The position numbers were made by a program, and so were the translations under genes. The notes under the pieces were generated by a model, which saw only the letters and a list, made by a program, of their open reading frames with translations, had not been told where the DNA came from and searched no databases. This document shows, one piece after another, positions 153-10,901 of a stretch of 12,899 bases of DNA. Origin of the DNA: PVC group bacterium (GTDB taxonomy: Bacteria > Auribacterota > Erginobacteria > Erginobacterales > Erginobacteraceae); the NCBI GenBank assembly GCA_043804695.1, contig JAZDIV010000020.1, positions 1-12,899 of the forward strand, read 5' to 3'. Within the stretch, counting starts at the first letter, position 1. Each line of letters starts with the position of its first letter.

Positions 153-1520
153 ATGACTAACCAGAACAACGTAGTCAAAATAACTAATTACAGTGAAGCC
201 CTGGATTACCTGTACCGTTTGCGCCTCTTCGGGACCAAGCTGGGGCTGCATAACATCCGCCGCCTCCTGGAGCTGCTGGGGGATCCTCATCAGGGTCTGG
301 CCTTTTATCATATCGCGGGGACGAACGGAAAAGGTTCGGTGGCGGCGATCCTCCAGTCCCTGCTCCGGACCACTCACCGCCGGGTGGGCCTCTACATCTC
401 CCCCCACCTGGAGAATTTCCGGGAACGGATCCGGATCAACAACCGCCTGATCTCTCCCCGGGCCGTCACGGCCGGGGTGGAGGAGATGCGGCCGCTGCTG
501 GACCGGGTTGCCCGGAGCCCGGGCTGCTCTCACCCGACCTACTTCGAGGCGGTGACCGCGCTCGCCTGTCGGTACTTCCGGCGGGAGGGGGCCGACGCCG
601 TTGTTTGGGAGGTCGGGCTGGGAGGACGGCTGGACGCCACTAACGTGGTCAGGCCTCTGGTCTCGGTTGTCACCAATGTCTCTCTCGAGCACCAGCAATA
701 CCTGGGAAGGAGCATCGATCTGATCGTCCGGGAGAAGGGGGGGATCATCAAGAACGGGGTTCCCCTGGTGACCGCCGCCCGGAATCCGAAAGTCAGAGCG
801 TGTCTGCGCCGGATCTGCCGGCGGGCGCGCGCCCCGATGATCGAGGTGGATGCCCTCTATAAAGGAACGGTAGCGGAGCGGAGCATGACGGAACAGCGGA
901 TAACCGTCACCGGCCCCCGCCGGGTGTATGCCGATCTCGTTCTCCCGCTGCCGGGCGACCACCAGGTGGCGAACTGCGCCACTGCGCTCGCCGCCTGGGA
1001 GGCATCCGATCCCCGGGCCGGGGAGGTCGCGTCTTCCCGGATCCGGCGGTCTCTCCGGCGCGTTTCCTGGCCGGGCCGTTTTGAATTCATCCCCGGTCCG
1101 CCGGATGTCGTCCTGGACGGAGCGCACAACCGGTCCGGGGCGGCGGCCTGCGCGAAGACCATGCGGATGCTGGTTCCGGACCGTCCGATCATTCTTATTC
1201 TGGGAGTGCTGGCCGATAAAGATGTCGGGGCCATCTGCCGTCCGCTGGTCCCCTTGGCCTGGAAGGTGATCGCCGTCCGGCCCGCGAGCAGCCGCGGCCT
1301 CCCCGCTTCCGAACTGGCCCGGGTCTGCCGCCGCTCTGCGTCCTCGGGAAAAATTCCGGTTCTGGTCCGCAAATCGCTTGAGTCGGCCCTCGAATCCTGC
1401 TACCGTATATGCTTTTCCGGCCGTCCGGCCGCGGATCGGCGTCCGCCGCTGATCTGCATCACCGGGTCCCTCCGCCTGGTCGGCCCGGCCCGGAGGATGA
1501 TAATGAGTCATAAAATGTAG
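153..1520 (+). CDS. folC: Bifunctional folylpolyglutamate synthase/dihydrofolate synthase
   Basis: 455 aa. P-loop HIAGTNGKGS, plus the Mur-ligase/FolC motifs LYISPHL, EVGLGGRLDATNVV, WPGRFE, LDGAHN and ITGSL. Confidence 0.95.
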   Translation: MTNQNNVVKITNYSEALDYLYRLRLFGTKLGLHNIRRLLELLGDPHQGLAFYHIAGTNGKGSVAAILQSLLRTTHRRVGLYISPHLENFRERIRINNRLISPRAVTAGVEEMRPLLDRVARSPGCSHPTYFEAVTALACRYFRREGADAVVWEVGLGGRLDATNVVRPLVSVVTNVSLEHQQYLGRSIDLIVREKGGIIKNGVPLVTAARNPKVRACLRRICRRARAPMIEVDALYKGTVAERSMTEQRITVTGPRRVYADLVLPLPGDHQVANCATALAAWEASDPRAGEVASSRIRRSLRRVSWPGRFEFIPGPPDVVLDGAHNRSGAAACAKTMRMLVPDRPIILILGVLADKDVGAICRPLVPLAWKVIAVRPASSRGLPASELARVCRRSASSGKIPVLVRKSLESALESCYRICFSGRPAADRRPPLICITGSLRLVGPARRMIMSHKM

Positions 1521-2809: not shown

Positions 2810-3715
2810 ATGAAAAGGAAGGGATACCTGTTGTTCGGGATTCTTCTGGCGGCGGGATGCCTGTTGCCGGCGTCCGGCGGCCTCGCCGGCCCCAAGAAGA
2901 CGATCGCTGTCGCCGCCTTCGATAACAAGTCGGGCTGGTACGGCAACTGGGATATCGGCCAGGCGATGCAGGAGATGGCCGCCGAGTCTCTCATCAAGAC
3001 CGGCAAGTTCTCCGTTCTGGAGCGCCAGGAACTGGACAGCGTGCTGGCGGAGCAGGATCTCGGGGCCAGCGGGCGAACCGGAGAAGGTTCCGCGGCTGCG
3101 ATCGGAAAGCTGGGGAAGGCCCAGATTCTGGTCGCCGGGACGGTATCCGAGTTCGAGGAGCAGAAGGGGGGAGAGGGAGCCGGCATCGGATTCAAGGGAA
3201 TACGGCTCGGCGGCAGCCACGAGACCGCGCACGTGGGAATCCTCGTCCGCCTGATCGATACCACGAGCGGGGAGGTCCTCGATTCGATCCGGGTGGTGAA
3301 AGACGCCCACGCGGGGGGGCTCAAGATCGGCTACAGCAACGCCGACTTCGGGGGCGACCTGGGCGGTTTCCGGAAGACACCCCTGGGACAGGCAACCCAG
3401 GAAGCCATCGACGAGGCCGTCCAGAAAATAACCGCCCGGCTGAAAAACGTTCCCTGGCAGGGGAAACTCATCAAGGCCGGTCCTTCCCAGGTCTATCTCA
3501 ATGCCGGCAGCGAGGGCGGCGTCAGCGATGGGATGGAGTTCGATGTCTACCGTCAGGGCGAAGCCCTGGTCGACCCCGACACGGGGATGACGCTCGGCGC
3601 GGAGACGGAGAAGATCGGCCGGATCAAAGTCACCGAGGTCAAGGATAAATTCTCGCTGGCCGCCGTCGTCTCCGGTTCCGACATGCAGCGGGGCGACCTG
3701 GTGAAGTCCGACTGA
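2810..3715 (+). CDS. Exported CsgG/HfaB-family (TolB-N-like) protein with a FlgT-C-like C-terminal beta domain
   Basis: 301 aa. N-terminal signal peptide (MKRK + hydrophobic stretch, possible AAGC lipobox). CsgG-like pattern IAVAAFDN...FSVLERQELDSVLAEQ...IGKL..AQILVAGTV...VRLIDTTSGEV. C-terminal VYLNAG..GV..GMEFDVY...DPDTG domain. Confidence 0.8.
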   Translation: MKRKGYLLFGILLAAGCLLPASGGLAGPKKTIAVAAFDNKSGWYGNWDIGQAMQEMAAESLIKTGKFSVLERQELDSVLAEQDLGASGRTGEGSAAAIGKLGKAQILVAGTVSEFEEQKGGEGAGIGFKGIRLGGSHETAHVGILVRLIDTTSGEVLDSIRVVKDAHAGGLKIGYSNADFGGDLGGFRKTPLGQATQEAIDEAVQKITARLKNVPWQGKLIKAGPSQVYLNAGSEGGVSDGMEFDVYRQGEALVDPDTGMTLGAETEKIGRIKVTEVKDKFSLAAVVSGSDMQRGDLVKSD

Positions 3716-3945
3716 TGCTGCGCCGGCTGTTCAAGCTCATCCTGCTCCTGATCGCCGTGGCCCTGGTTTACGGGTTCTGGCTGCTTTACCAGGATAAGCC
3801 GCCGGAAGAAAAACAGGAGTTCCGGGAGGGGATGGTCCGGGTGGTCAAGGACGCGGGCCGGACCGTGGCCAAAGCAGGACGACGGGTGGTGGAGAAAGGG
3901 CAGGAGGTGCTGGGGCAAGGACGTGATGAGGAGAAAGAGGAATAG
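3715..3945 (+). CDS. Small single-pass membrane protein of unknown function
   Basis: 76 aa. ATG overlaps the upstream TGA (TGATG, translational coupling). Hydrophobic N-terminal helix LILLLIAVALVYGFWLLY followed by a charged amphipathic tail. Confidence 0.75.
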   Translation: MLRRLFKLILLLIAVALVYGFWLLYQDKPPEEKQEFREGMVRVVKDAGRTVAKAGRRVVEKGQEVLGQGRDEEKEE

Positions 3946-3951
3946 ATGAAA

Positions 3952-4129
3952 GAATGATGAAAACCGAATATCGAAGCACCTCCGCCGAAGCGGCTTCGGC
4001 GCTCTCGCGAAGGCGGATGACGAAATGTGCTCCCGCTATCTGCGCCACGTCGTTGAAAGGGAGATTGGGAATTAAGTCATTTATCATTGGGATTTCATTC
4101 GGATTTCGTCATTCGGGTTTCGTCATTTA
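3952..4129. repeat. Heptamer-periodic inverted-repeat element (GAATGAC/GAAAYCC units) with a nested GC-rich palindrome
   Basis: Left arm GAATGAT GAAAACC GAATATC GAA (3952-3975) matches the reverse complement of the right arm (TCATTCG GATTTCG TCATTCG GGTTTCG TCATTTA, 4095-4129) at 19/24 positions. Nested CGCCGAAG-cgg-CTTCGGCG at 3983-4001. Confidence 0.8.
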
Positions 4130-4167
4130 GGATCGGGGAGTGTACTTCCCGGATTCTTGAAATCACC

Positions 4168-5508
4168 ATGCCTTCTCTTATTCCAGCCGGCCGCCGGTTC
4201 TACCTGCGCACATTCGGCTGCCAGATGAACCGGCACGACTCGGAGCGGATCGCCGGGATGCTGAAAGCCCGGGGCTGGCGGCCGGCCCGGAACGAGGAGG
4301 ACGCGGATCTGATCCTCCTCAACACCTGCAGCGTTCGCCGGCACGCCGAGGAACGGGTCCTGGGCCGGCTGGCCCGCTATCGCCGGGAGAAGGAGAAGCG
4401 TCCCCGTCTGGCAGTGGGGGTGCTCGGCTGCATGGCCCAGATCCGGGGGGAAACGCTGCGGGAACAGTTTCCGGAGCTGGACCTGATACTGGGGCCGGGC
4501 AGTTTTGGCCGCCTCCCGGAAGAGGCGGAGGCCGTTCTCGCCGGCGCGGGGCCGCGGCTGGCCGCCGGTTTCGACCCGCCCGACGCTTTCTTCCGGGGCC
4601 TCTGTCTGCGGGAAAACTCCCTCTGTGGCTGGGTCACCGTGATGCGGGGATGCGACAATTTCTGCTCCTACTGCGTGGTCCCCTTCGCCCGGGGGCGCGA
4701 GGTCAGCCGTTCTCCCGACGAGATCGTCGAAGAGATAAGGACGCTGGGGGAGGGGGGATACCGGGAGGTCACCCTCCTCGGCCAGAATGTCAATTCCTAC
4801 CGGGGAATTGACCCGGCCGGTGCCGCAGTGACCTTCCCCGGGCTGCTCCGCCGGGTGAACGCGGTCCCCGGAATCGAGCGGATCCGGTTTTTAACCTCGC
4901 ACCCGAAAGATATCTTCCCGTCGTTAATCGAGGCGATCGGGGAACTGGATAAAGTCTGCGAGTCCCTGCACTTCCCCGCCCAGTCCGGTTCCGACGCCAT
5001 CCTCGAAAAGATGAACCGGGGATACACCCGGGACGAATACCTGGCCAAGGCGCGGAGATTGAAAGAGGCTGTCCCGGGCATATCGCTCGCCTCCGATTTC
5101 ATCGTCGGTTTTCCGGGGGAGACCGGCGATGACTTCTCCCGGACGCTGGACCTCCACCGGGAAGTCCGTTTTGACCGGATCTTCGCCTTCGCTTATTCTC
5201 CCCGGCCGCGGACGGCCGCGGCCGGGTTCCCCGACGATGTCCCCCCGGAGGTGAAAGCCTCCCGACTCCAGGAGCTGTTCGCTCTTCAGAGAACAATCTC
5301 GCTGGAGAAGAACCGGGAACTGGCCGGCAGCGCCGTGGAAGTCCTGGTCGAGGGAAGGAACCGCCGGTACCCGGACCGGGGGGAGGGGAGGACCCGGGGC
5401 GGTCAGATGGTCTTTTTCCCCTGGGAGGAGGGGATGGAGGGGCGGATGATCAAGGTGCTGATCGACCGGGTCACCGACCTGAGCTTGTTTGGCCGGGCTA
5501 TTGAATAG
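4168..5508 (+). CDS. miaB: tRNA-2-methylthio-N6-dimethylallyladenosine synthase (radical SAM methylthiotransferase)
   Basis: UPF0004 cysteine motifs TFGCQMN, NTCSVR, GCMAQ; radical SAM CDNFCSYC; LLGQNVNSY, RIRFLTSHP, SDFIVGFPGET, YSPRPRT; C-terminal TRAM domain. Start placed at ATG 4168 because 4087-4129 is repeat sequence. Confidence 0.95.
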   Translation: MPSLIPAGRRFYLRTFGCQMNRHDSERIAGMLKARGWRPARNEEDADLILLNTCSVRRHAEERVLGRLARYRREKEKRPRLAVGVLGCMAQIRGETLREQFPELDLILGPGSFGRLPEEAEAVLAGAGPRLAAGFDPPDAFFRGLCLRENSLCGWVTVMRGCDNFCSYCVVPFARGREVSRSPDEIVEEIRTLGEGGYREVTLLGQNVNSYRGIDPAGAAVTFPGLLRRVNAVPGIERIRFLTSHPKDIFPSLIEAIGELDKVCESLHFPAQSGSDAILEKMNRGYTRDEYLAKARRLKEAVPGISLASDFIVGFPGETGDDFSRTLDLHREVRFDRIFAFAYSPRPRTAAAGFPDDVPPEVKASRLQELFALQRTISLEKNRELAGSAVEVLVEGRNRRYPDRGEGRTRGGQMVFFPWEEGMEGRMIKVLIDRVTDLSLFGRAIE

Positions 5509-5553
5509 ACCTGACCGGTAACGATATAGTGCACTACTGAGACAGGGAAAAAA

Positions 5554-5624
5554 GGAATGATGGAGTGGTGGAGGCAGGCTCCCCATTACTCCGATACTCC
5601 AGTACTCCATTACTCCATTACTCC
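5554..5624. repeat. Octamer-periodic inverted-repeat element (GGAGTAAT / CCATTACT units)
   Basis: Left GGAATGAT GGAGTGGT GGAG (5554-5573); right CCATTACT CCGATACT CCAGTACT CCATTACT CCATTACT CC (5583-5624). Confidence 0.85.
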
Positions 5625-5642
5625 TGAGCAATTGTTTCAACC

Positions 5643-7409
5643 ATGCATACCGGTCATGTACAGTTCAAAAAACAAGGTCTGACCCCAACGTGGCTGCTGG
5701 CGGCGGCGGTGCTGCTGGTCTACGCCAACTCCTGGAGCAACCCCTTCATCCTCGACGACGTCACCCACCTTCTCCAGGATCCGCGGATCGGGGAGTGGAA
5801 AAACTGGACGGAGGTGTTCCGGTCGCCGTTCTTCGAATTCAAGGAGGCCGGCCTGGCCCAGTATTACCGCCCGCTGACCAGGCTGACCTACAAGGCGGAA
5901 TGGCTTTTCTTCGGCGGCCTCCCCTTCGGCTACCACCTGGTCAATACAGCCTTCCACCTGCTCAACACGCTCCTCCTCTACCTGATCTGCCGGAGGCTGG
6001 CCGGGCGGGGACCGGCCTTCCTGGCCGCGCTCATCTTCGGCATCCACCCGCTCCAGGCCGAGGAGGTGAGCTACATCTCCGGCCTGGGCGGTGTCGCCTC
6101 CGTCTCCGGAATACTGGCCTCGCTCTATTGTTTTATCAGGTTCCTGAAAAACCGGCGGTTCGTCTGGTATCTTTCGTCCCTTCTCTTCTTCCTGATCGGG
6201 CTTCTCTACAAGGAGGTCGCCCTGCTGGGGCCGGTTCTCCTGGCCTGGCTGGTTCTGACGGCGATCCCCTCCGGGGGGGAGGAGACTCTTCCCCGGGGGA
6301 CTGCTGTTTGGTTTGTTCTCCCCTTCTTCCTGCTCGCCGGAGGGTATCTCATCCTCCGCGTGTTCTTCCTGATCCGGGCCGACTTCACAGCCGGCCTCGC
6401 GGACGGGCTCTGGCTCCGGTTTTTGACCTTTGGGAAGGGGATCTGGATCTACCTGGGGCTGGCGCTCTTCCCGTTCCGCCTCCATTTTTACCGATCCCTG
6501 GAGGTGCTTTCCCATGGGTGGCATGTTCTCCCGCTCCTCCTGCTGGGCGGCGGCGCCGCCGGGCTTCTCCGGAGCGTCCGGCGGCCCGGGCGCCCGTTTT
6601 CACTCTTCGCCTTCGGTTTCGGCTGGTTTCTGATCGGCCTGCTCCCTTTTTCCGGGATCAACCCCATCTACCTGGAAAGAGAATTCCTTTACTGGGCCGA
6701 GCACTTCATGTATCTCCCCCTGGCCGGTCTGGGCATCGCCCTGGCCGCCGCGTTCACCGGCCGGGGAAAAGGTTTGCCTGCCGTTACGGCCCGGGTCTGC
6801 CTGGTTCTGATCGTCTGTGTCCTGGCCCTCCTCACCGTCCGGCAGAATGAATTCTGGTCCGATGAAACAGTGTTCTTCGAGCGGATGAGCCGGCATGAAC
6901 CTGATCTTTTCCGGACCGCCTCTCTTTTAGGGATCGCTTATTATAAAGAAGGGCGGATCGACGAGGCGATCGCCGCCGATCTCCGCGCCCGGGCGCTGCT
7001 CTTCGCCCGGAATCCCGTGTCTTCGGGGAAGGATCTGCTCCCGATGGAAAGGTATCAGCTCAAAATCATTCTCTGGCGGCTGTCGCAGGGCTGCCGGAGC
7101 GCCCGCCGTTACGACGAGGCCCGGCAGGCCGCCCGGGAACTGCTGGAGATTTCTCCGGACGGGTATGAGGGCCGGTATTTGCTGGGGCGGGCTTTCCTGG
7201 AAAGCGGTGACGGCGCAGAAGCCCTTCCGTTCCTGGAGGAGGCGTACCGGCTGCGCCCGGATGACTATGAAGTCGCCCGGGCGCTGATCCTCTGCTGCCG
7301 GCAGCGGGGGGACCAGGCCCGCGCTCGGGAGGTCTGGAGTGAAGCGTCCCGCCGGATCCCCGCTTTCAGTAAGGCACGGGAAATCTTGAAGCAGCGATAT
7401 GAAAAATGA
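5643..7409 (+). CDS. Polytopic membrane protein with C-terminal TPRs; TMTC-like / GT-C-fold glycosyltransferase candidate
   Basis: 588 aa. First loop FILDD, then YYRPL, YHLVN..FH, HPLQAEEVSYISG, L.KE and AEHFMYLPLAG, as in TMTC/PMT_2-like proteins. About 10 hydrophobic segments. TPR-like helices from about residue 420 (LGIAYYKEGRIDEAI, YLLGRAFLESGDGAEAL). Confidence 0.75.
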   Translation: MHTGHVQFKKQGLTPTWLLAAAVLLVYANSWSNPFILDDVTHLLQDPRIGEWKNWTEVFRSPFFEFKEAGLAQYYRPLTRLTYKAEWLFFGGLPFGYHLVNTAFHLLNTLLLYLICRRLAGRGPAFLAALIFGIHPLQAEEVSYISGLGGVASVSGILASLYCFIRFLKNRRFVWYLSSLLFFLIGLLYKEVALLGPVLLAWLVLTAIPSGGEETLPRGTAVWFVLPFFLLAGGYLILRVFFLIRADFTAGLADGLWLRFLTFGKGIWIYLGLALFPFRLHFYRSLEVLSHGWHVLPLLLLGGGAAGLLRSVRRPGRPFSLFAFGFGWFLIGLLPFSGINPIYLEREFLYWAEHFMYLPLAGLGIALAAAFTGRGKGLPAVTARVCLVLIVCVLALLTVRQNEFWSDETVFFERMSRHEPDLFRTASLLGIAYYKEGRIDEAIAADLRARALLFARNPVSSGKDLLPMERYQLKIILWRLSQGCRSARRYDEARQAARELLEISPDGYEGRYLLGRAFLESGDGAEALPFLEEAYRLRPDDYEVARALILCCRQRGDQARAREVWSEASRRIPAFSKAREILKQRYEK

Positions 7410-7417
7410 TTTGCTTT

Positions 7418-7653
7418 AAAAATTTTAAATCCTAATATCTAAATCCTAAATAAATACAAAATTCAAAATCCAAATACACAAAAAGACTATCCCCTGGGCA
7501 GTGTAAGGGAAACAGCGCTGCCTATAACATCTGAGAAGGCTCTTCTTGCCTCCAATTCGTTTCGAAGAATCCGCCTGGATGTGCTGCCGGGGGAGGTTTT
7601 GGTCATTTGGATTTGAATATTGTTTAGGATTTAGATATTAGGATTTAGGATTT
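7418..7653. repeat. AT-rich heptamer-periodic long inverted repeat (AAATCCT units) enclosing a ~110-nt spacer
   Basis: TAAATCCTAATATCTAAATCCTAAA (7426-7450) is the perfect 25-nt reverse complement of 7623-7647. ATTCAAAATCCAAAT (7461-7475) pairs with ATTTGGATTTGAAT (7605-7618) with one bulge. Confidence 0.9.
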
Positions 7654-7685
7654 GTTTCTTGATCAGTCTCGATATCGGAACATGA

Positions 7686-7695
7686 GATTATAATC
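7686..7695 (+). promoter_or_regulatory. Possible sigma70 -10 box upstream of mutS
   Basis: TATAAT at 7689-7694 inside the palindrome GATTATAATC, 24 nt before the mutS ATG. No convincing -35 at canonical spacing. Confidence 0.3.
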
Positions 7696-7718
7696 CGGAA
7701 GAATATATTATCTGGCTG

Positions 7719-10325
7719 ATGAGTAAACTCACCCCCATGATGAAGCAGTACCGGGCGCTGAAGGCGTCCGTCAAGGACGCGGTCCTTCTCTTCCGGCTGG
7801 GCGATTTTTACGAGATGTTCGGAGAGGACGCGAAGATCGCGGCCCCCATCCTGGAGATCGCCCTCACCGCCCGCCACACCACCCCCATGTGCGGGATACC
7901 CCATCACGCCGCCTCCGGCTACATCGCCCGCCTCCTCAAGGCGGGCAGGAAAGTCGCCGTCTGCGAGCAGGTGGAGGATCCCCGGCAGGCGCAGGGGATC
8001 GTCAAGCGCGACATCATCCGGATCATCACCCCGGGAACGGCGGTCGAGGAGGAGCTCCTGACCGCCGCCCCCAACTACCTGGCCTCGGTCCACCGGCTGG
8101 GTCAGGTCTACGGGTTCGCCTACATCGAACTCTCGACCGGCGAGTTCAAGGTCGCCGAACTCACCTCCCCAGACTCCCTCCAGAACGAGCTGGAACGGCT
8201 CCGGCCCAGCGAATGCCTGGCGCCCGCGTCGCTGGCGCCGGAACTGAAAACGCTGACGTCTCTTCTGCCGGGGACGGTCCTCACCTCCCTCGAGGACTGG
8301 TTCTTCGATTACGACCTGGGCGCCGGGGCGCTGAAGAGGCAGTTCCGGACCGCCACCCTGGACGGATTCGGCTGCCAGCACCTGGTCCCGGGGATCGGAG
8401 CGGCCGGGGCGATCCTCGGCTACGTGGGCGAGAATCTCAAATCGCCCCTTTCCCATATCCAGTCCCTCTCCGTCTTCTCACCGACCGAGTTCATGATCAT
8501 GGACGCCGTCTCCCAGAGCAACCTTGAAATCATCGAGCCGCTCCGGGGGAGCGACCGCGCCGCCACCCTTTTCGGGGTCCTCGACCGGACGGCGACCTCG
8601 ATGGGGAGCCGGACCCTGCGTTCCTGGCTGCTCCAGCCCCTGCTTGATCCGGCGGAGATCGGGAAAAGACTGGACGGCCTCGAGGAGCTGACGGGGCGCC
8701 GGGACGCCCTCGCGGATATCCGGGAGCATCTGAAAGGGATCCGGGATATCGGAAGGATCATCGGGAGGGTCTCCTGCGGCCGGACCAACGCCCGGGAGCT
8801 GGCCGCCCTCCGGGAATCTCTTTCCTCCCTTCCCCCCCTCCGGGAGGAGCTGAAGGGGCTGGCGTCGGCCGCCCTCCGGGGACCGGCGGAAGATCTCGGC
8901 GTCCCCCCGGCGCTGATCCTTCTGCTGGAAAACGCCCTGGCCGATAATCCGCCTCTCGCCCTCAAGGAGGGGGGGATGATCAGAAGCGGCTACCGAGCCG
9001 ATCTCGATGAGCTGCACGCGCTGGCCCGGGACGGGAGGAACTGGATCAGCCGCTTCCAGGAAGAGGAGATCCGCCGGACCGGGATCAAGTCGCTGAAGGT
9101 CAGGCACAACCGGGTCTTCGGCTATTACATTGAGGTCACCCGCCCCAATCTGCCCCAGGTCCCGGACAACTATCTGCCCAAGCAGACCCTGGTCAACGCG
9201 GAACGGTTCATCACCGAGGAGCTGAAGAGCTACGAGAACAAGGTCCTGGGCGCCCAGGAGAAGGCGGCGGCCCTCGAGTACCGGATCTTCGAGGAGATCC
9301 GGGAGGAGGTGAAAAAAGAAGCCCCGGCGATCCAGCGGGCGGCCCGGGCGGTGGGGGCGGTCGACGCTCTGGCCGCCCTGGCGGAGGCGGCCGTCGCCAA
9401 CCGGTATGTCCGGCCGAAGATCGAGTCTTCCGACCGCCTCGAGATCGTCAACGGGCGCCACCCGGTGATCGAGAGGATACTGGTGGACGAGCGGTTTGTC
9501 GGGAACGACACCCTGATGGACGGGGGCGAGAACCAGATCGCCGTCATCACCGGCCCCAACATGGCGGGCAAGTCCACCTATATCCGGCAGGTCGCCCTGA
9601 TCGTGCTCATGGCCCAGGTGGGGAGCTTCGTCCCCGCCGACTCGGCCCGGATCGGGGTGGCGGACCGGATCTTCACCCGGGTGGGCGCGTCCGACGAACT
9701 GGCCCGGGGACAGTCCACGTTCATGGTGGAGATGATCGAGACGGCCAACATCCTCCACCACGCGACCCCCCGCTCCCTGGTCATCCTGGATGAGATCGGC
9801 CGGGGGACGAGCACCTTCGACGGCATCAGCATCGCCTGGGCGGTGGCCGAGTATCTTCATAATCACCCCTCCTCCAGAGCGCGGACCCTCTTCGCGACTC
9901 ATTACCATGAGCTGACCGAGTTGGAGCTGACCCTTCCCGGGGTGAAAAACTACAACGTGGCGGTCCGGGAGTGGAACGATGAGGTGATATTCCTGAGGAA
10001 GGTGCTCCGCGGCGGGACCGACAAGAGCTACGGGATCCAGGTGGCCCGCCTGGCCGGTCTCCCCCGCGCCGTCATTGAACGGGCCAGCGTGATCCTGGCC
10101 AATCTGGAGGATGAGACCCTCTCCGCCGACGGACGGCCGAAGTTCGCCGGCGGATCCGGGGCCGGGGGAACCGGCTCCGCCGGCTCCGGCCGCCAGCTCT
10201 ATCTTTTCGAGGCATCGGCCCACCCGGTTCTGACCGAGCTGAGAAACATCAACCTCGACCACCTGACCCCGTTCGAGGCCATGCAGCGGCTGCGGGCGAT
10301 GAAGGACCGGGTCCTGGAAGACTGA
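7719..10325 (+). CDS. mutS: DNA mismatch repair protein MutS (MutS1)
   Basis: 868 aa. TPMMKQY, mismatch-binding GDFYEMF, Walker A GPNMAGKST, STFMVEM, Walker B DEIGRGTST, FATHYHEL, SYGIQVA, clamp motif QLYLF and C-terminal TP.EA. Confidence 0.98.
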   Translation: MSKLTPMMKQYRALKASVKDAVLLFRLGDFYEMFGEDAKIAAPILEIALTARHTTPMCGIPHHAASGYIARLLKAGRKVAVCEQVEDPRQAQGIVKRDIIRIITPGTAVEEELLTAAPNYLASVHRLGQVYGFAYIELSTGEFKVAELTSPDSLQNELERLRPSECLAPASLAPELKTLTSLLPGTVLTSLEDWFFDYDLGAGALKRQFRTATLDGFGCQHLVPGIGAAGAILGYVGENLKSPLSHIQSLSVFSPTEFMIMDAVSQSNLEIIEPLRGSDRAATLFGVLDRTATSMGSRTLRSWLLQPLLDPAEIGKRLDGLEELTGRRDALADIREHLKGIRDIGRIIGRVSCGRTNARELAALRESLSSLPPLREELKGLASAALRGPAEDLGVPPALILLLENALADNPPLALKEGGMIRSGYRADLDELHALARDGRNWISRFQEEEIRRTGIKSLKVRHNRVFGYYIEVTRPNLPQVPDNYLPKQTLVNAERFITEELKSYENKVLGAQEKAAALEYRIFEEIREEVKKEAPAIQRAARAVGAVDALAALAEAAVANRYVRPKIESSDRLEIVNGRHPVIERILVDERFVGNDTLMDGGENQIAVITGPNMAGKSTYIRQVALIVLMAQVGSFVPADSARIGVADRIFTRVGASDELARGQSTFMVEMIETANILHHATPRSLVILDEIGRGTSTFDGISIAWAVAEYLHNHPSSRARTLFATHYHELTELELTLPGVKNYNVAVREWNDEVIFLRKVLRGGTDKSYGIQVARLAGLPRAVIERASVILANLEDETLSADGRPKFAGGSGAGGTGSAGSGRQLYLFEASAHPVLTELRNINLDHLTPFEAMQRLRAMKDRVLED

Positions 10326-10377
10326 GCGCAGAGCGCAAAGAGCATAGCGCATAGCGTTGCACCCCGGGCGCTATGCT
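10324..10377. repeat. Heptamer-periodic inverted-repeat element (TAGCGCA/GAGCGCA units)
   Basis: GAGCGCA GAGCGCA AAGAGCA TAGCGCA TAGCGTT (10324-10358), overlapping the mutS TGA. AGCATAGCGC (10341-10350) is the perfect reverse complement of GCGCTATGCT (10368-10377). Confidence 0.85.
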
Positions 10378-10384
10378 TTTATTT
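10349..10384 (+). terminator. Possible intrinsic terminator after mutS, formed by the heptamer repeat
   Basis: Stem GCATAGCG (10349-10356) / CGCTATGC (10369-10376) followed by TTTTATTT. The 12-nt loop is longer than typical. Confidence 0.45.
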
Positions 10385-10406
10385 AAATGTTATCATCGAT
10401 ACAATA

Positions 10407-10415
10407 TGGTATTAT
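10407..10415 (+). promoter_or_regulatory. Possible extended -10 promoter for the NIL/kinase genes
   Basis: TGgTATTAT within a very AT-rich tract (10377-10458) in an otherwise GC-rich window. Confidence 0.35.
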
Positions 10416-10456
10416 TATTAAATAAAGGCGCTAAATTACTGCTTCGGAATTTTAAA

Positions 10457-10576
10457 AACGGTAACGGCAAGGGTAACAATGCCCGTATCGGTGAGGGTAA
10501 CGGTAACGGCTACCTCGCTGGCAGCACGTAACCGTAACCGGCAGACGAAACGGGCCTCGTTACCGTAACCCTAACC
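10457..10576. repeat. Hexamer-periodic inverted-repeat element (AACGGT / CGTAAC-CGTTAC units)
   Basis: Left: AACGGT AACGGC AAGGGT AAC ... GCCCGT ATCGGT GAGGGT AACGGT AACGGC. Right: CGTAAC CGTAAC CG ... ACGGGC ctCGTTAC CGTAAC CCTAAC C. GCCCGT (10481-10486) pairs with ACGGGC (10550-10555). Confidence 0.8.
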
Positions 10577-10603
10577 AAGTTGTTTAGTGTTTAGGAGACT
10601 CAC

Positions 10604-10825
10604 ATGCGCATCATGGCGGAACTGACCATGCCCAAAGATTGCAAGGATGAGCCCGTCTTTTATCAGATGGTCAAGCGGTTTGAAGTCGTCCCCACGATCA
10701 TCGAGGCTTCGTTCTCCACCGGCACCGGCTGGGCATATATCAAGCTGGAGGGGGAGGAGGAGGAGATCGACCGGCTGCTGGTCTTTCTGAGGTCGAAGAA
10801 CGTCATCGTCGATGTCCGGTCATAA
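10604..10825 (+). CDS. Stand-alone NIL-domain (ACT-like) protein
   Basis: 73 aa with SD AGGAG at 10593-10597. Pattern L..P.....EPV.Y..VK.F.V..TII.A......G....L.GE.EEI.....FL....V.V resembles the NIL domain of MetN C-termini and NIL-ferredoxins. Confidence 0.75.
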   Translation: MRIMAELTMPKDCKDEPVFYQMVKRFEVVPTIIEASFSTGTGWAYIKLEGEEEEIDRLLVFLRSKNVIVDVRS

Positions 10826-10901
10826 CCCGGGTTGCTGAGTGCGGCATATCCGGCGGCAATGAATAACCGGAAGCATTCGCGGACAGTGTTCATTTTCGTG
10901 A

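Follow-up and report, generated by a model that had tools for sequence, protein, structure and literature searches.

Short, non-coding, hairpin-forming sequences in many dispersed intergenic copies are typical of miniature inverted-repeat transposable elements (MITEs), of repetitive extragenic palindromic sequences and bacterial interspersed mosaic elements (REP/BIME), and of REP doublets with their associated tyrosine transposases (REPIN-RAYT). Foldback (FB) transposons of Drosophila have long inverted arms of short tandem units around a variable loop, and the short tandemly repeated repetitive (STRR) heptamers of cyanobacteria form abundant intergenic arrays with no established function. To our knowledge, the abundant intergenic heptamer arrays of several phyla are unexplained, 23S rRNA intervening sequences (IVSs) have had no accepted origin since about 1990, and the very large PF05635/TIGR02436 protein family has no known function outside diversity-generating retroelements. 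ORF-bearing IVSs are inserted in 23S rRNA hairpins (helix 25 or 45). The helix-45 IVS of Coxiella burnetii, in a paper that also cites Leptospira and others, carries an S23p open reading frame (ORF) in a stem-loop, whose 28-bp stem of variable-number tandem heptamers is cut by RNase III; the part of that paper considered here discusses the IVS as possibly mobile, citing older proposals and leaving the mechanism unstated (PMC4990558). The 'putative global regulator binding sites' (classes 1-3) of Geobacter metallireducens are tandem repeats of 3-5 units of 7-9 nt, paired across the two strands with variable spacing and present as dozens of copies between genes; in the section of the paper that concerns us they were read as IHF/HU sites, with no test and no link to cargo genes (Aklujkar et al. 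2009, PMC2700814). Abundant intergenic TAACTGA heptamers of Beggiatoaceae, Cyanobacteria and Bacteroidetes, also with no established function, were reported in the part considered as 169 direct sets and only one indirect repeat (MacGregor 2015, PMC4679880). The present work concerns five intergenic elements with inverted arms of short tandem words in a 12.9-kb window, the whole of contig C20 in the genome of a PVC group bacterium (G000; 2.97 Mb in 155 contigs, G+C content 57.8%, completeness 88%).

In this genome, the PF05635 family, the layout of the 23S IVSs and the heptamer arrays are tied together as one object with gene-bearing (loaded) and gene-less (empty) states. We are highly confident of the descriptive part of this account, namely the architecture, the word families, the relation of loaded to empty copies, the restriction to intergenic regions, the faithful copies, the presence/absence among relatives and the conservation above the level of synonymous sites. 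For the account as a whole, mechanism included, in which the five elements are gene-less representatives of cassette-like DNA elements, present in large numbers, whose arms would be read by cargo proteins, we see about an even chance.

Architecture of the five elements

All five elements, first noticed as hairpins in an earlier note on this DNA, were recovered in their places by Tandem Repeats Finder (TRF) and an inverted-repeat search (Table 1). They lie between protein-coding genes identified with Pfam and not in 23S rRNA. When RNA folding was compared with 100 dinucleotide shuffles, elements 3, 5 and 2 folded much better than the shuffles; elements 1 and 4 are weak as hairpins. The arms of element 3 mirror each other down to their irregular units and enclose a core that is unique in G000. 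The right arm of element 1 is built of two alternating heptamers, and the first 50 nt of its core form a G+C hairpin module of their own, which recurs six times elsewhere in G000. Element 5 is a dispersed repeat of ~140 nt that comprises a left module (CTGCTTCGGAATTT), arms of (GGTAAC)n and (GTAACC)n with a mirrored non-periodic insert (GCCCGT/ACGGGC), and a 17-nt core. Only element 4, located right after mutS, fitted a terminator-like pattern (a G+C-rich stem and then a T-run where a gene ends); such sites in the region (8) were not above the number in shuffles (6.6).

Table 1. Elements, arms, gene-bearing copies and associated features. Positions without a contig prefix are those of the window.
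Feature	Position	Strand	Arms, word or content	Fold z	Context
Element 1	3952..4129	.	left arm 3952-3975, degenerate; core 3976-4083; right arm 4084-4127, period 14, AATGACG/AAATCCG; inverted arms 23 nt, 83% complementary	-1.4	between 76-aa ORF (stop 3945) and MiaB-like gene
Element 2	5546..5625	.	arms 5546-5573 / 5597-5624, period 8 (GGAGTRAT / reverse complement), 28 nt at 75%; loop 23 nt	-4.0 and -2.7	between MiaB (stop 5508) and TPR/PMT2 (start 5643)
Element 3	7418..7655	.	arms 7420-7467 / 7606-7653, period 7 (AAATCCT-type), 48 nt at 81%; core 138 nt	-9.9	between TPR gene (stop 7409) and mutS (start 7719)
Element 4	10324..10380	.	left arm 10324-10356, period 7, ~4.7 GAGCGCA/TAGCGCA heptamers; right arm short, ~2 units (13 nt at 92%), then T-run	-2.3	left arm begins on mutS stop codon
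Element 5	10440..10580	+	arms 10460-10508 / 10546-10576, period 6, 31 nt at 74% + 19 nt at 89%	-4.1 (+ strand), -6.3 (- strand)	ends 24 nt upstream of NIL-domain gene
Conserved core of element 3	7484-7605				
Flanking modules	10390-10456, 10576-10603		left CTGCTTCGGAATTT motif; G+C hairpin, 4-nt loop, then TAATTT		
76-aa ORF	3715-3945	+	no Pfam family		between CsgG-like gene and miaB
TPR/PMT2 gene	5643-7409	+			
Loaded copy	C101		ATGGGGA; intact TIGR02436		no window element with this word
Loaded copy	C27		AGTAATC; intact TIGR02436		no window element with this word
Loaded copy	C143		GTGTAAA; intact TIGR02436		no window element with this word
Loaded copy	C83		AAATCCT; intact TIGR02436/PF05635		counterpart of element 3
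Loaded copy	C121:4969-5367		element 5-family arms; intact TIGR02436/PF05635		counterpart of element 5
Loaded copy	C120		AATGACG/AAATCCG; pseudogene with three TAA		counterpart of element 1
Loaded copy	C127		CACCAAGA arms; GxxExxY (TIGR04256)/PDDEXK_3		
Longer TIGR02436 match	C11:22588-23262		224 aa		
Longer TIGR02436 match	C33:13754-14554		266 aa		
Insert in 23S rRNA gene	C48:36231-36268	-	23 nt, ~4 tandem copies of a nearly palindromic 9-mer		hairpin loop, Rfam LSU ~1206-1227
Tandem hairpin units, G003	C203, L018 ~1121-1429		GATTAC-type word		element 1 junction

The five cores contained no ORF, in agreement with the earlier note, and tblastn of 27 protein segments against the four element-holding spacers gave no remnant of a four-helix-bundle gene (best E ~0.1); the 'empty derivatives' of that note are thus not supported in the sense of products of gene decay. 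At a permissive threshold, Rfam gave zero matches in the entire window.

Gene-bearing copies

TIGR02436 matched nine places in G000. Six of these are small stand-alone PF05635/TIGR02436 genes (five intact and one pseudogene), and all six lie exactly between inverted periodic arms, as does the single GxxExxY gene of the genome (Table 1). The statement in the earlier note that similar arms often flank genes of these two families was therefore borne out in this genome. The arm words of the cargo-bearing copies are among the commonest word families in G000. All seven cargo ORFs are co-oriented with the flanking host genes.

The remaining three TIGR02436 matches are to larger proteins (224-266 aa). 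In two of these, encoded on C11 and C33, a partial match to the four-helix-bundle family is joined to the TIGR04258 'four helix bundle suffix' domain, and zinc ribbons are present as well in the protein from C33; neither gene, when checked, lay between periodic arms. Two further candidates were rejected. Where 'loops' appeared to span ~1-1.4 kb, they proved to be ordinary genes of the host, among them those for ABC ATPase, OMP decarboxylase and CobW, situated between neighbouring elements, and not cargo. A 160-aa ORF between ACGTTGA-type arms (C31) is probably no gene: it belongs to no Pfam or NCBIfam family and its Atlas model has a pLDDT of 0.33.

The association was examined in the phylum with the best TIGR02436 match of each of 29 other genomes, with mock positions 900 nt away at the same loci as a control. 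An ungapped inverted match (score of at least 11) bracketed the gene in 26 of the 29 genomes versus 2 of 52 mock positions. Arm self-match reached at least 0.5 at the best period, which was 7 nt in nearly all, for 22 of the 26 bracketed genes. In 27 cassettes, protein similarity followed the arm word: mean scores were 111-174 bits at word distances of 0-1 and 67-78 bits at distances of at least 3 (Spearman rho -0.12, permutation p 0.04, values which overstate the evidence, the genomes being related).

Paired arrays across the genome

Non-overlapping TRF arrays with a period of 5-12 and at least 2.8 copies were collected from G000, and an inverted partner was defined as three units at 80% identity or more within 1.5 kb. 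Such a partner was present for 310 of 981 arrays, a direct partner for 128, and a partner in the reverse-only and complement-only controls for 32 and 34, respectively. Merging of the inverted pairs gave 221 elements with a median arm distance of 44 nt, of which 93 had period 7 and 75 period 8. G000 thus holds about 200-300 such intergenic elements, and the gene-less family that the earlier note had proposed from five hairpins is real. At least 21 clusters were formed by the 62 distinct words; single-linkage clustering chains unrelated words, and its p-value of 0.004 is therefore rough.

The elements avoid genes: only 11 of 195 were inside called genes, which make up 75.5% of G000 (2062 genes from our own crude caller, so that context counts are approximate). 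They lay between co-directional genes in 142 cases, between convergent genes in 16, between divergent genes in 13 and at contig ends in 13. The background of gene pairs was 1482/216/209 in the same order of orientation, i.e., convergent and divergent spacers were not enriched. No fixed distance to genes was evident, with medians of 47 nt from the upstream stop and 51 nt to the downstream start.

An arrangement X...rc(X), with rc denoting the reverse complement, is its own reverse complement, and the 'same polarity relative to transcription' ascribed to the five elements in the earlier note is consequently a tautology. The informative point is which arrangement occurs, X first or rc(X) first. 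This is nearly fixed inside word families (16:1, 15:1, 14:0, 12:0 and 10:1), and, of 195 elements, 165 begin with a purine-rich arm and 25 with a pyrimidine-rich one; counted by distinct word, 47 of 62 were purine-rich first and 12 pyrimidine-rich first. The order with X first is real. For the window itself, the statement that the more purine-rich arm comes first held for four of the five elements and failed for the AAATCCT-type word, which has 3 purines in 7; A exceeds T in all five first arms.

Within families, the elements are faithful copies. A total of 39 places in G000 matched the 141 nt of element 5 at 79-93% identity (BLAST), non-periodic parts included. The 37 copies that were aligned have in common the irregular arms, the mirrored non-periodic insert, the 17-nt core and the left module, most of them continuing into a right G+C hairpin module and then the start of the next gene; mismatches between the arms are conserved across the copies. 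This family is asymmetric, and among the 33 places between co-directional genes it runs along the flanking genes at 26 and against them at 7. The arms of element 3 occur in 12 copies, one of which (C83) encloses the PF05635 gene. Members of the CACCAAGA family, and likewise those of the AAATCCT family, have arms with one common irregular order of units at unrelated loci, the loops differing. A system that recognises 'structure and periodicity, not sequence', as had been proposed, is therefore not supported: copies keep their irregular unit order, often together with core and modules, and the word co-varies with the cargo. A comparison of partner with non-partner arms was uninformative, since a copy in opposite orientation turns it into a comparison of homologous arms; it shows only that similarity between copies exceeds the complementarity of the two arms within a copy.

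Modules like those flanking element 5 surround many elements (Table 1), and 237 GCGCC(3-5)GGCGC hairpins were counted in G000, often a few bases upstream of a start codon. At the ends of element 5, neither a target-site duplication nor a fixed target word was evident in the 37 copies with 70-nt flanks; conservation extends into the flanking modules.

Genes of the window and their counterparts in relatives

Pfam identified the genes of the window, all on the + strand, in the order Mur ligase, amidohydrolase, CsgG-like protein, 76-aa ORF, MiaB-like radical SAM protein, TPR/PMT2 protein, MutS, NIL-domain protein and PAS histidine kinase. The closest named match of MutS was a metagenome-assembled genome of Candidatus Euphemobacter frigidus (79% identity). 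An exact 39-nt pattern from the start of the NIL gene had no match in metagenome contigs and yielded no variants from the same species, and no public sequencing run was listed for positions 3700-10900. In eight relatives, the genes follow the same order (CsgG, small ORF, MiaB, (TPR), MutS, NIL, kinase). All eight relatives examined have the small ORF at the same place and with a conserved sequence (43-83% identity). The TPR/PMT2 gene is present in G000, G001, G003 and G004; in G002, G005, G006, G011 and G013 it is missing and miaB directly adjoins mutS.

Alignment of the orthologous junctions showed presence/absence of elements and different word families at one and the same gene junction among relatives, in line with the expectation of the earlier note; a clean empty site was not found in these alignments. 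G001, a member of the same genus, has elements 1-4 and a second hairpin of the element 2 type. Unit numbers differ from those of G000 in elements 1, 2 and 4, the ortholog of element 4 having 36 more bases over loop and right arm and ~5 units in the right arm. Element 5 is absent from the corresponding spacer of G001, where other modules follow the same left module. The spacers of G004 are reduced to 19 nt at the site of element 3 and 27 nt at that of element 2, and a AAGTGCCT-word hairpin occupies the site of element 1; G005, G006 and G002 have spacers of ~20 nt at the last site. Other words were found at every junction in G003. At its element 1 junction, a hairpin-plus-spacer unit of ~70 nt occurs in 3-4 tandem copies, which shows that whole cassettes can also amplify locally.

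Between G000 and G001, the spacers of elements 3 and 1 are 86% and 79% identical, respectively, compared with 66-69% at codon third positions and 49% in the element-free spacer between the NIL and kinase genes. The right arm of element 3 is identical over ~60 nt. Its core is likewise conserved far above codon third positions and may represent a small RNA or the leader of mutS, the Rfam search giving no match.

Among the 15 genomes searched, the word pattern of element 2 occurred 129 times in G000, 26-414 times in six others of the order, at most 9 times in three further genomes and 0 times in the remaining five; the backwards control gave 0 everywhere. The loaded ATGGGGA cassette precedes the same downstream gene in G000, G005 and G011, the last being from another family within the order; both arms of the G011 copy have changed to the word GGTGAAT. 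Part of the cassettes, at least, is therefore of long standing and has been retained through vertical inheritance.

RNA or DNA level

In the 142 elements between co-directional genes, sense-strand mismatches comprised 139 G·U and 164 A·C pairs (45 vs 49 when counted by element). None of five changes in the left arm of element 3 between G000 and G001 was compensated.

RNase III was not found with TIGR02191 and PF14622 in G000 and 13 other genomes of the order (completeness 75-97%), nor with PF00636 in the 5 genomes of the order searched; of 7 genomes from the phylum's other families, 6 gave a match to TIGR02191/PF14622. If rnc has been lost from the whole order, this would be unusual. The missing sense-strand G·U excess and the failure to find RNase III argue against arms that selection maintains as a stem in RNA for cleavage by this enzyme, and stems as its substrates are not a general explanation. 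The RNA-level system that the earlier note had allowed for is not supported. The number of arrays with an inverted partner per 100 kb was 9.9, 1.0, 7.5, 8.0, 20.1, 5.0 and 0 in genomes where RNase III was not found and 0, 2.1, 0, 0, 5.0, 0 and 10.3 in those encoding it. The possibility that loss of RNase III permitted array expansion is suggestive at best, since relatedness among the genomes confounds the comparison and G058 and G016 run counter to it.

Some polar constraint is shown by the co-orientation of all seven cargo genes and the orientation bias of the element 5 family; its source could be transcription or replication.

An insert in the 23S rRNA gene of G000 is a separate observation. 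The tandem 9-mers of this insert (Table 1) fold to a 20-bp stem with G·U pairs, and the adjacent hairpin is also enlarged (37 nt vs 14). The hairpin that holds the insert is presumably helix 45, which we take to be the IVS site of Coxiella.

Interpretation

The elements are best read as IVS-like DNA cassettes that may be mobile. In each cassette, a variable loop is enclosed by two arrays that stand head to head and repeat a 6-9-nt word specific to the family (X...rc(X), the A/purine-rich word first), and the loop may hold a few dozen bases, a unique non-coding core, a four-helix-bundle gene (PF05635/TIGR02436, the '23S rRNA intervening-sequence protein') or a GxxExxY gene for a PD-(D/E)XK nuclease. 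This is the layout of ORF-bearing 23S IVSs, placed in spacers between protein genes. Cassettes may spread at the DNA level by copy-and-paste or by cassette exchange, and their inverted symmetry would likewise arise at the DNA level, not through selection on an RNA stem. Each cargo protein would recognise the arrays of its own word and thereby also serve gene-less copies in trans, giving an autonomous/non-autonomous pair. For the mechanistic part as a whole (DNA-level spread, DNA-level symmetry and cargo proteins reading their own arrays in trans), our confidence is low and the proposal tentative.

Several points weigh against this reading. We found neither a transposase nor a target-site duplication nor a clean empty site, and the element boundaries are blurred by the mosaic flanking modules. 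We know of no case in which either cargo family moves DNA. The weak correlation between protein and word is equally explained by co-descent of gene and arms. A loaded cassette fixed at one locus across the order looks like a stable resident and not like an active mobile element. The conserved right arm and core of element 3 could equally mean a mutS leader or promoter function. Finally, no loaded copy with the words of elements 2 and 4 (GGAGTRAT and GCATAGC) was found in the incomplete genome.

Among the alternatives, mobilisation by an enzyme encoded elsewhere, for example a REP/RAYT-like Y1 transposase acting on single-stranded DNA hairpins or a recombinase acting at the G+C hairpin modules, with the cargo genes as passengers, seems unlikely to us, yet it would account for several of the observations. 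Six Y1_Tnp matches above the Pfam cut-off are present in G000, a strand-biased single-strand mechanism could yield the orientation bias of the element 5 family, copies stand in mosaics with the G+C hairpin modules, and different cassettes follow a common left module in G000 and G001. However, none of the six Y1 genes is flanked by periodic arms, the ends show no target-site duplication or fixed target word, and the tracking of cargo by word and the bracketing of cargo genes in 26 of 29 genomes are left unexplained. A role in RNA, in which the arms would pair in the operon transcript and a double-strand-specific RNase would cut the stem to separate cistrons or free the loop RNA, has its precedent in the heptamer stem around the S23p ORF of Coxiella, cut by RNase III (in the part of the source considered, PMC4990558). 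The co-orientation of cargo with host transcription, the folding of elements 3, 5 and 2 far above shuffles and the periodic insert in the 23S rRNA hairpin agree with it. Given that G·U pairs are not in excess, that RNase III was not found in 14 of 14 genomes of the order as opposed to 6 of 7 with it in other families, that the stems of elements 1 and 4 are weak and that the arm mismatches of element 5 are conserved across copies, we consider this role improbable.

Equally improbable, in our estimate, is that the arms are binding arrays for host DNA-binding proteins in regulation or nucleoid structure, with the cargo incidental. Paired 7-9-nt repeats are what was described as 'global regulator' sites in G. 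metallireducens, where the class 2 word, as far as the portion considered goes, corresponds to the CACGGAGAA family of G000 (PMC2700814). On double-stranded DNA, both arms would be one site in opposite orientations, which fits the absent wobble bias, and elements 1 and 3 are conserved above the neutral level. Against this, the 21 or more word clusters would demand equally many regulators, divergent and convergent spacers are not enriched and there is no fixed distance to starts or stops, and presence/absence with differing words at one junction fits insertion better than a conserved regulon. Growth in place, i.e., expansion of terminator or spacer hairpins by slippage with template switching keeping the arms alike and no mobility, is very improbable. 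The differing unit numbers of elements 1, 2 and 4 in G000 and G001 and the terminator-like element 4 agree with it, as does the variable heptamer number among Coxiella strains noted in the same part of that work (PMC4990558). It is hard to hold for elements 3 and 5: the ~140-nt sequence of element 5 recurs at 39 places, non-periodic parts included, the CACCAAGA and AAATCCT families keep irregular arms at unrelated loci, and the nearly fixed X-first order and the link to two cargo families would be unexplained.

We favour DNA-level cassettes with arms read by the cargo proteins over a separate enzyme, an RNA role or host-regulator sites. A stronger form, in which each four-helix-bundle protein or GxxExxY nuclease would read its own 6-9-nt word, displayed in head-to-head arrays to either side of its gene and at dozens of sites that lack a gene, and the pairs of gene-bearing and gene-less copies would make up an undescribed mobile or self-maintaining class with the 23S IVS as a special case, is rather doubtful. 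If true, such a class would work without RNase III in this order and would account for much of the bacterial heptamer excess. The unity of loaded and empty states makes the questions of cargo and of repeats testable with a few purified proteins and oligonucleotides.

Comparison with known systems

Similar to FB transposons, the elements have inverted arms built from short tandem units and a variable loop; FB transposons are eukaryotic. They resemble MITEs and REP-RAYT systems in the coexistence of gene-bearing and gene-less copies and in the mosaics of flanking modules. They differ in that the arms are tandem arrays of a short word where those systems have a unique inverted repeat, the 37 copies of the element 5 family showed no evident target-site duplication, the gene-bearing copies (PF05635, PDDEXK_3) encode no known transposase, and the Y1 genes of G000 lack arms. 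TAACTGA heptamers, in contrast, occur almost entirely as direct sets, and the part of the paper considered does not connect them with PF05635 or GxxExxY genes (PMC4679880). A general link between PF05635/GxxExxY cargo and arms of heptamer arrays was not found in the literature outside subscription journals.

With the G. metallireducens sites, as far as the portion of the paper covers them, the elements of G000 share the paired tandem architecture and the many intergenic copies, and the class 2 word, TCTCCGTS[Y], when reverse-complemented, gives that of the CACGGAGAA family. None of the Geobacter words given there (GTTGCTYN, TCTCCGTS[Y] and MTYCTGA) matches the five window words, and the phylum is different (PMC2700814).

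The 23S IVSs are the closest in layout. In both, a small PF05635 gene occupies the loop between terminal inverted repeats, and the stem of the Coxiella IVS is itself built of heptamers, according to the part of the source considered (PMC4990558). In contrast to IVSs, the elements lie between protein-coding genes, most of them, including all five of the window, are gene-less, and some hold a GxxExxY gene. Hundreds of copies in more than 20 word families are present in G000, and neither RNase III nor a wobble bias was found there. Terminal inverted repeats forming a stem are present in the window elements, those of elements 1 and 4 being weak. The S23p gene in the loop is not found in the five window cores; it is present in the copies with the same words as elements 3 and 5 (C83 and C121) and, as a pseudogene, in the copy with the word of element 1 (C120).

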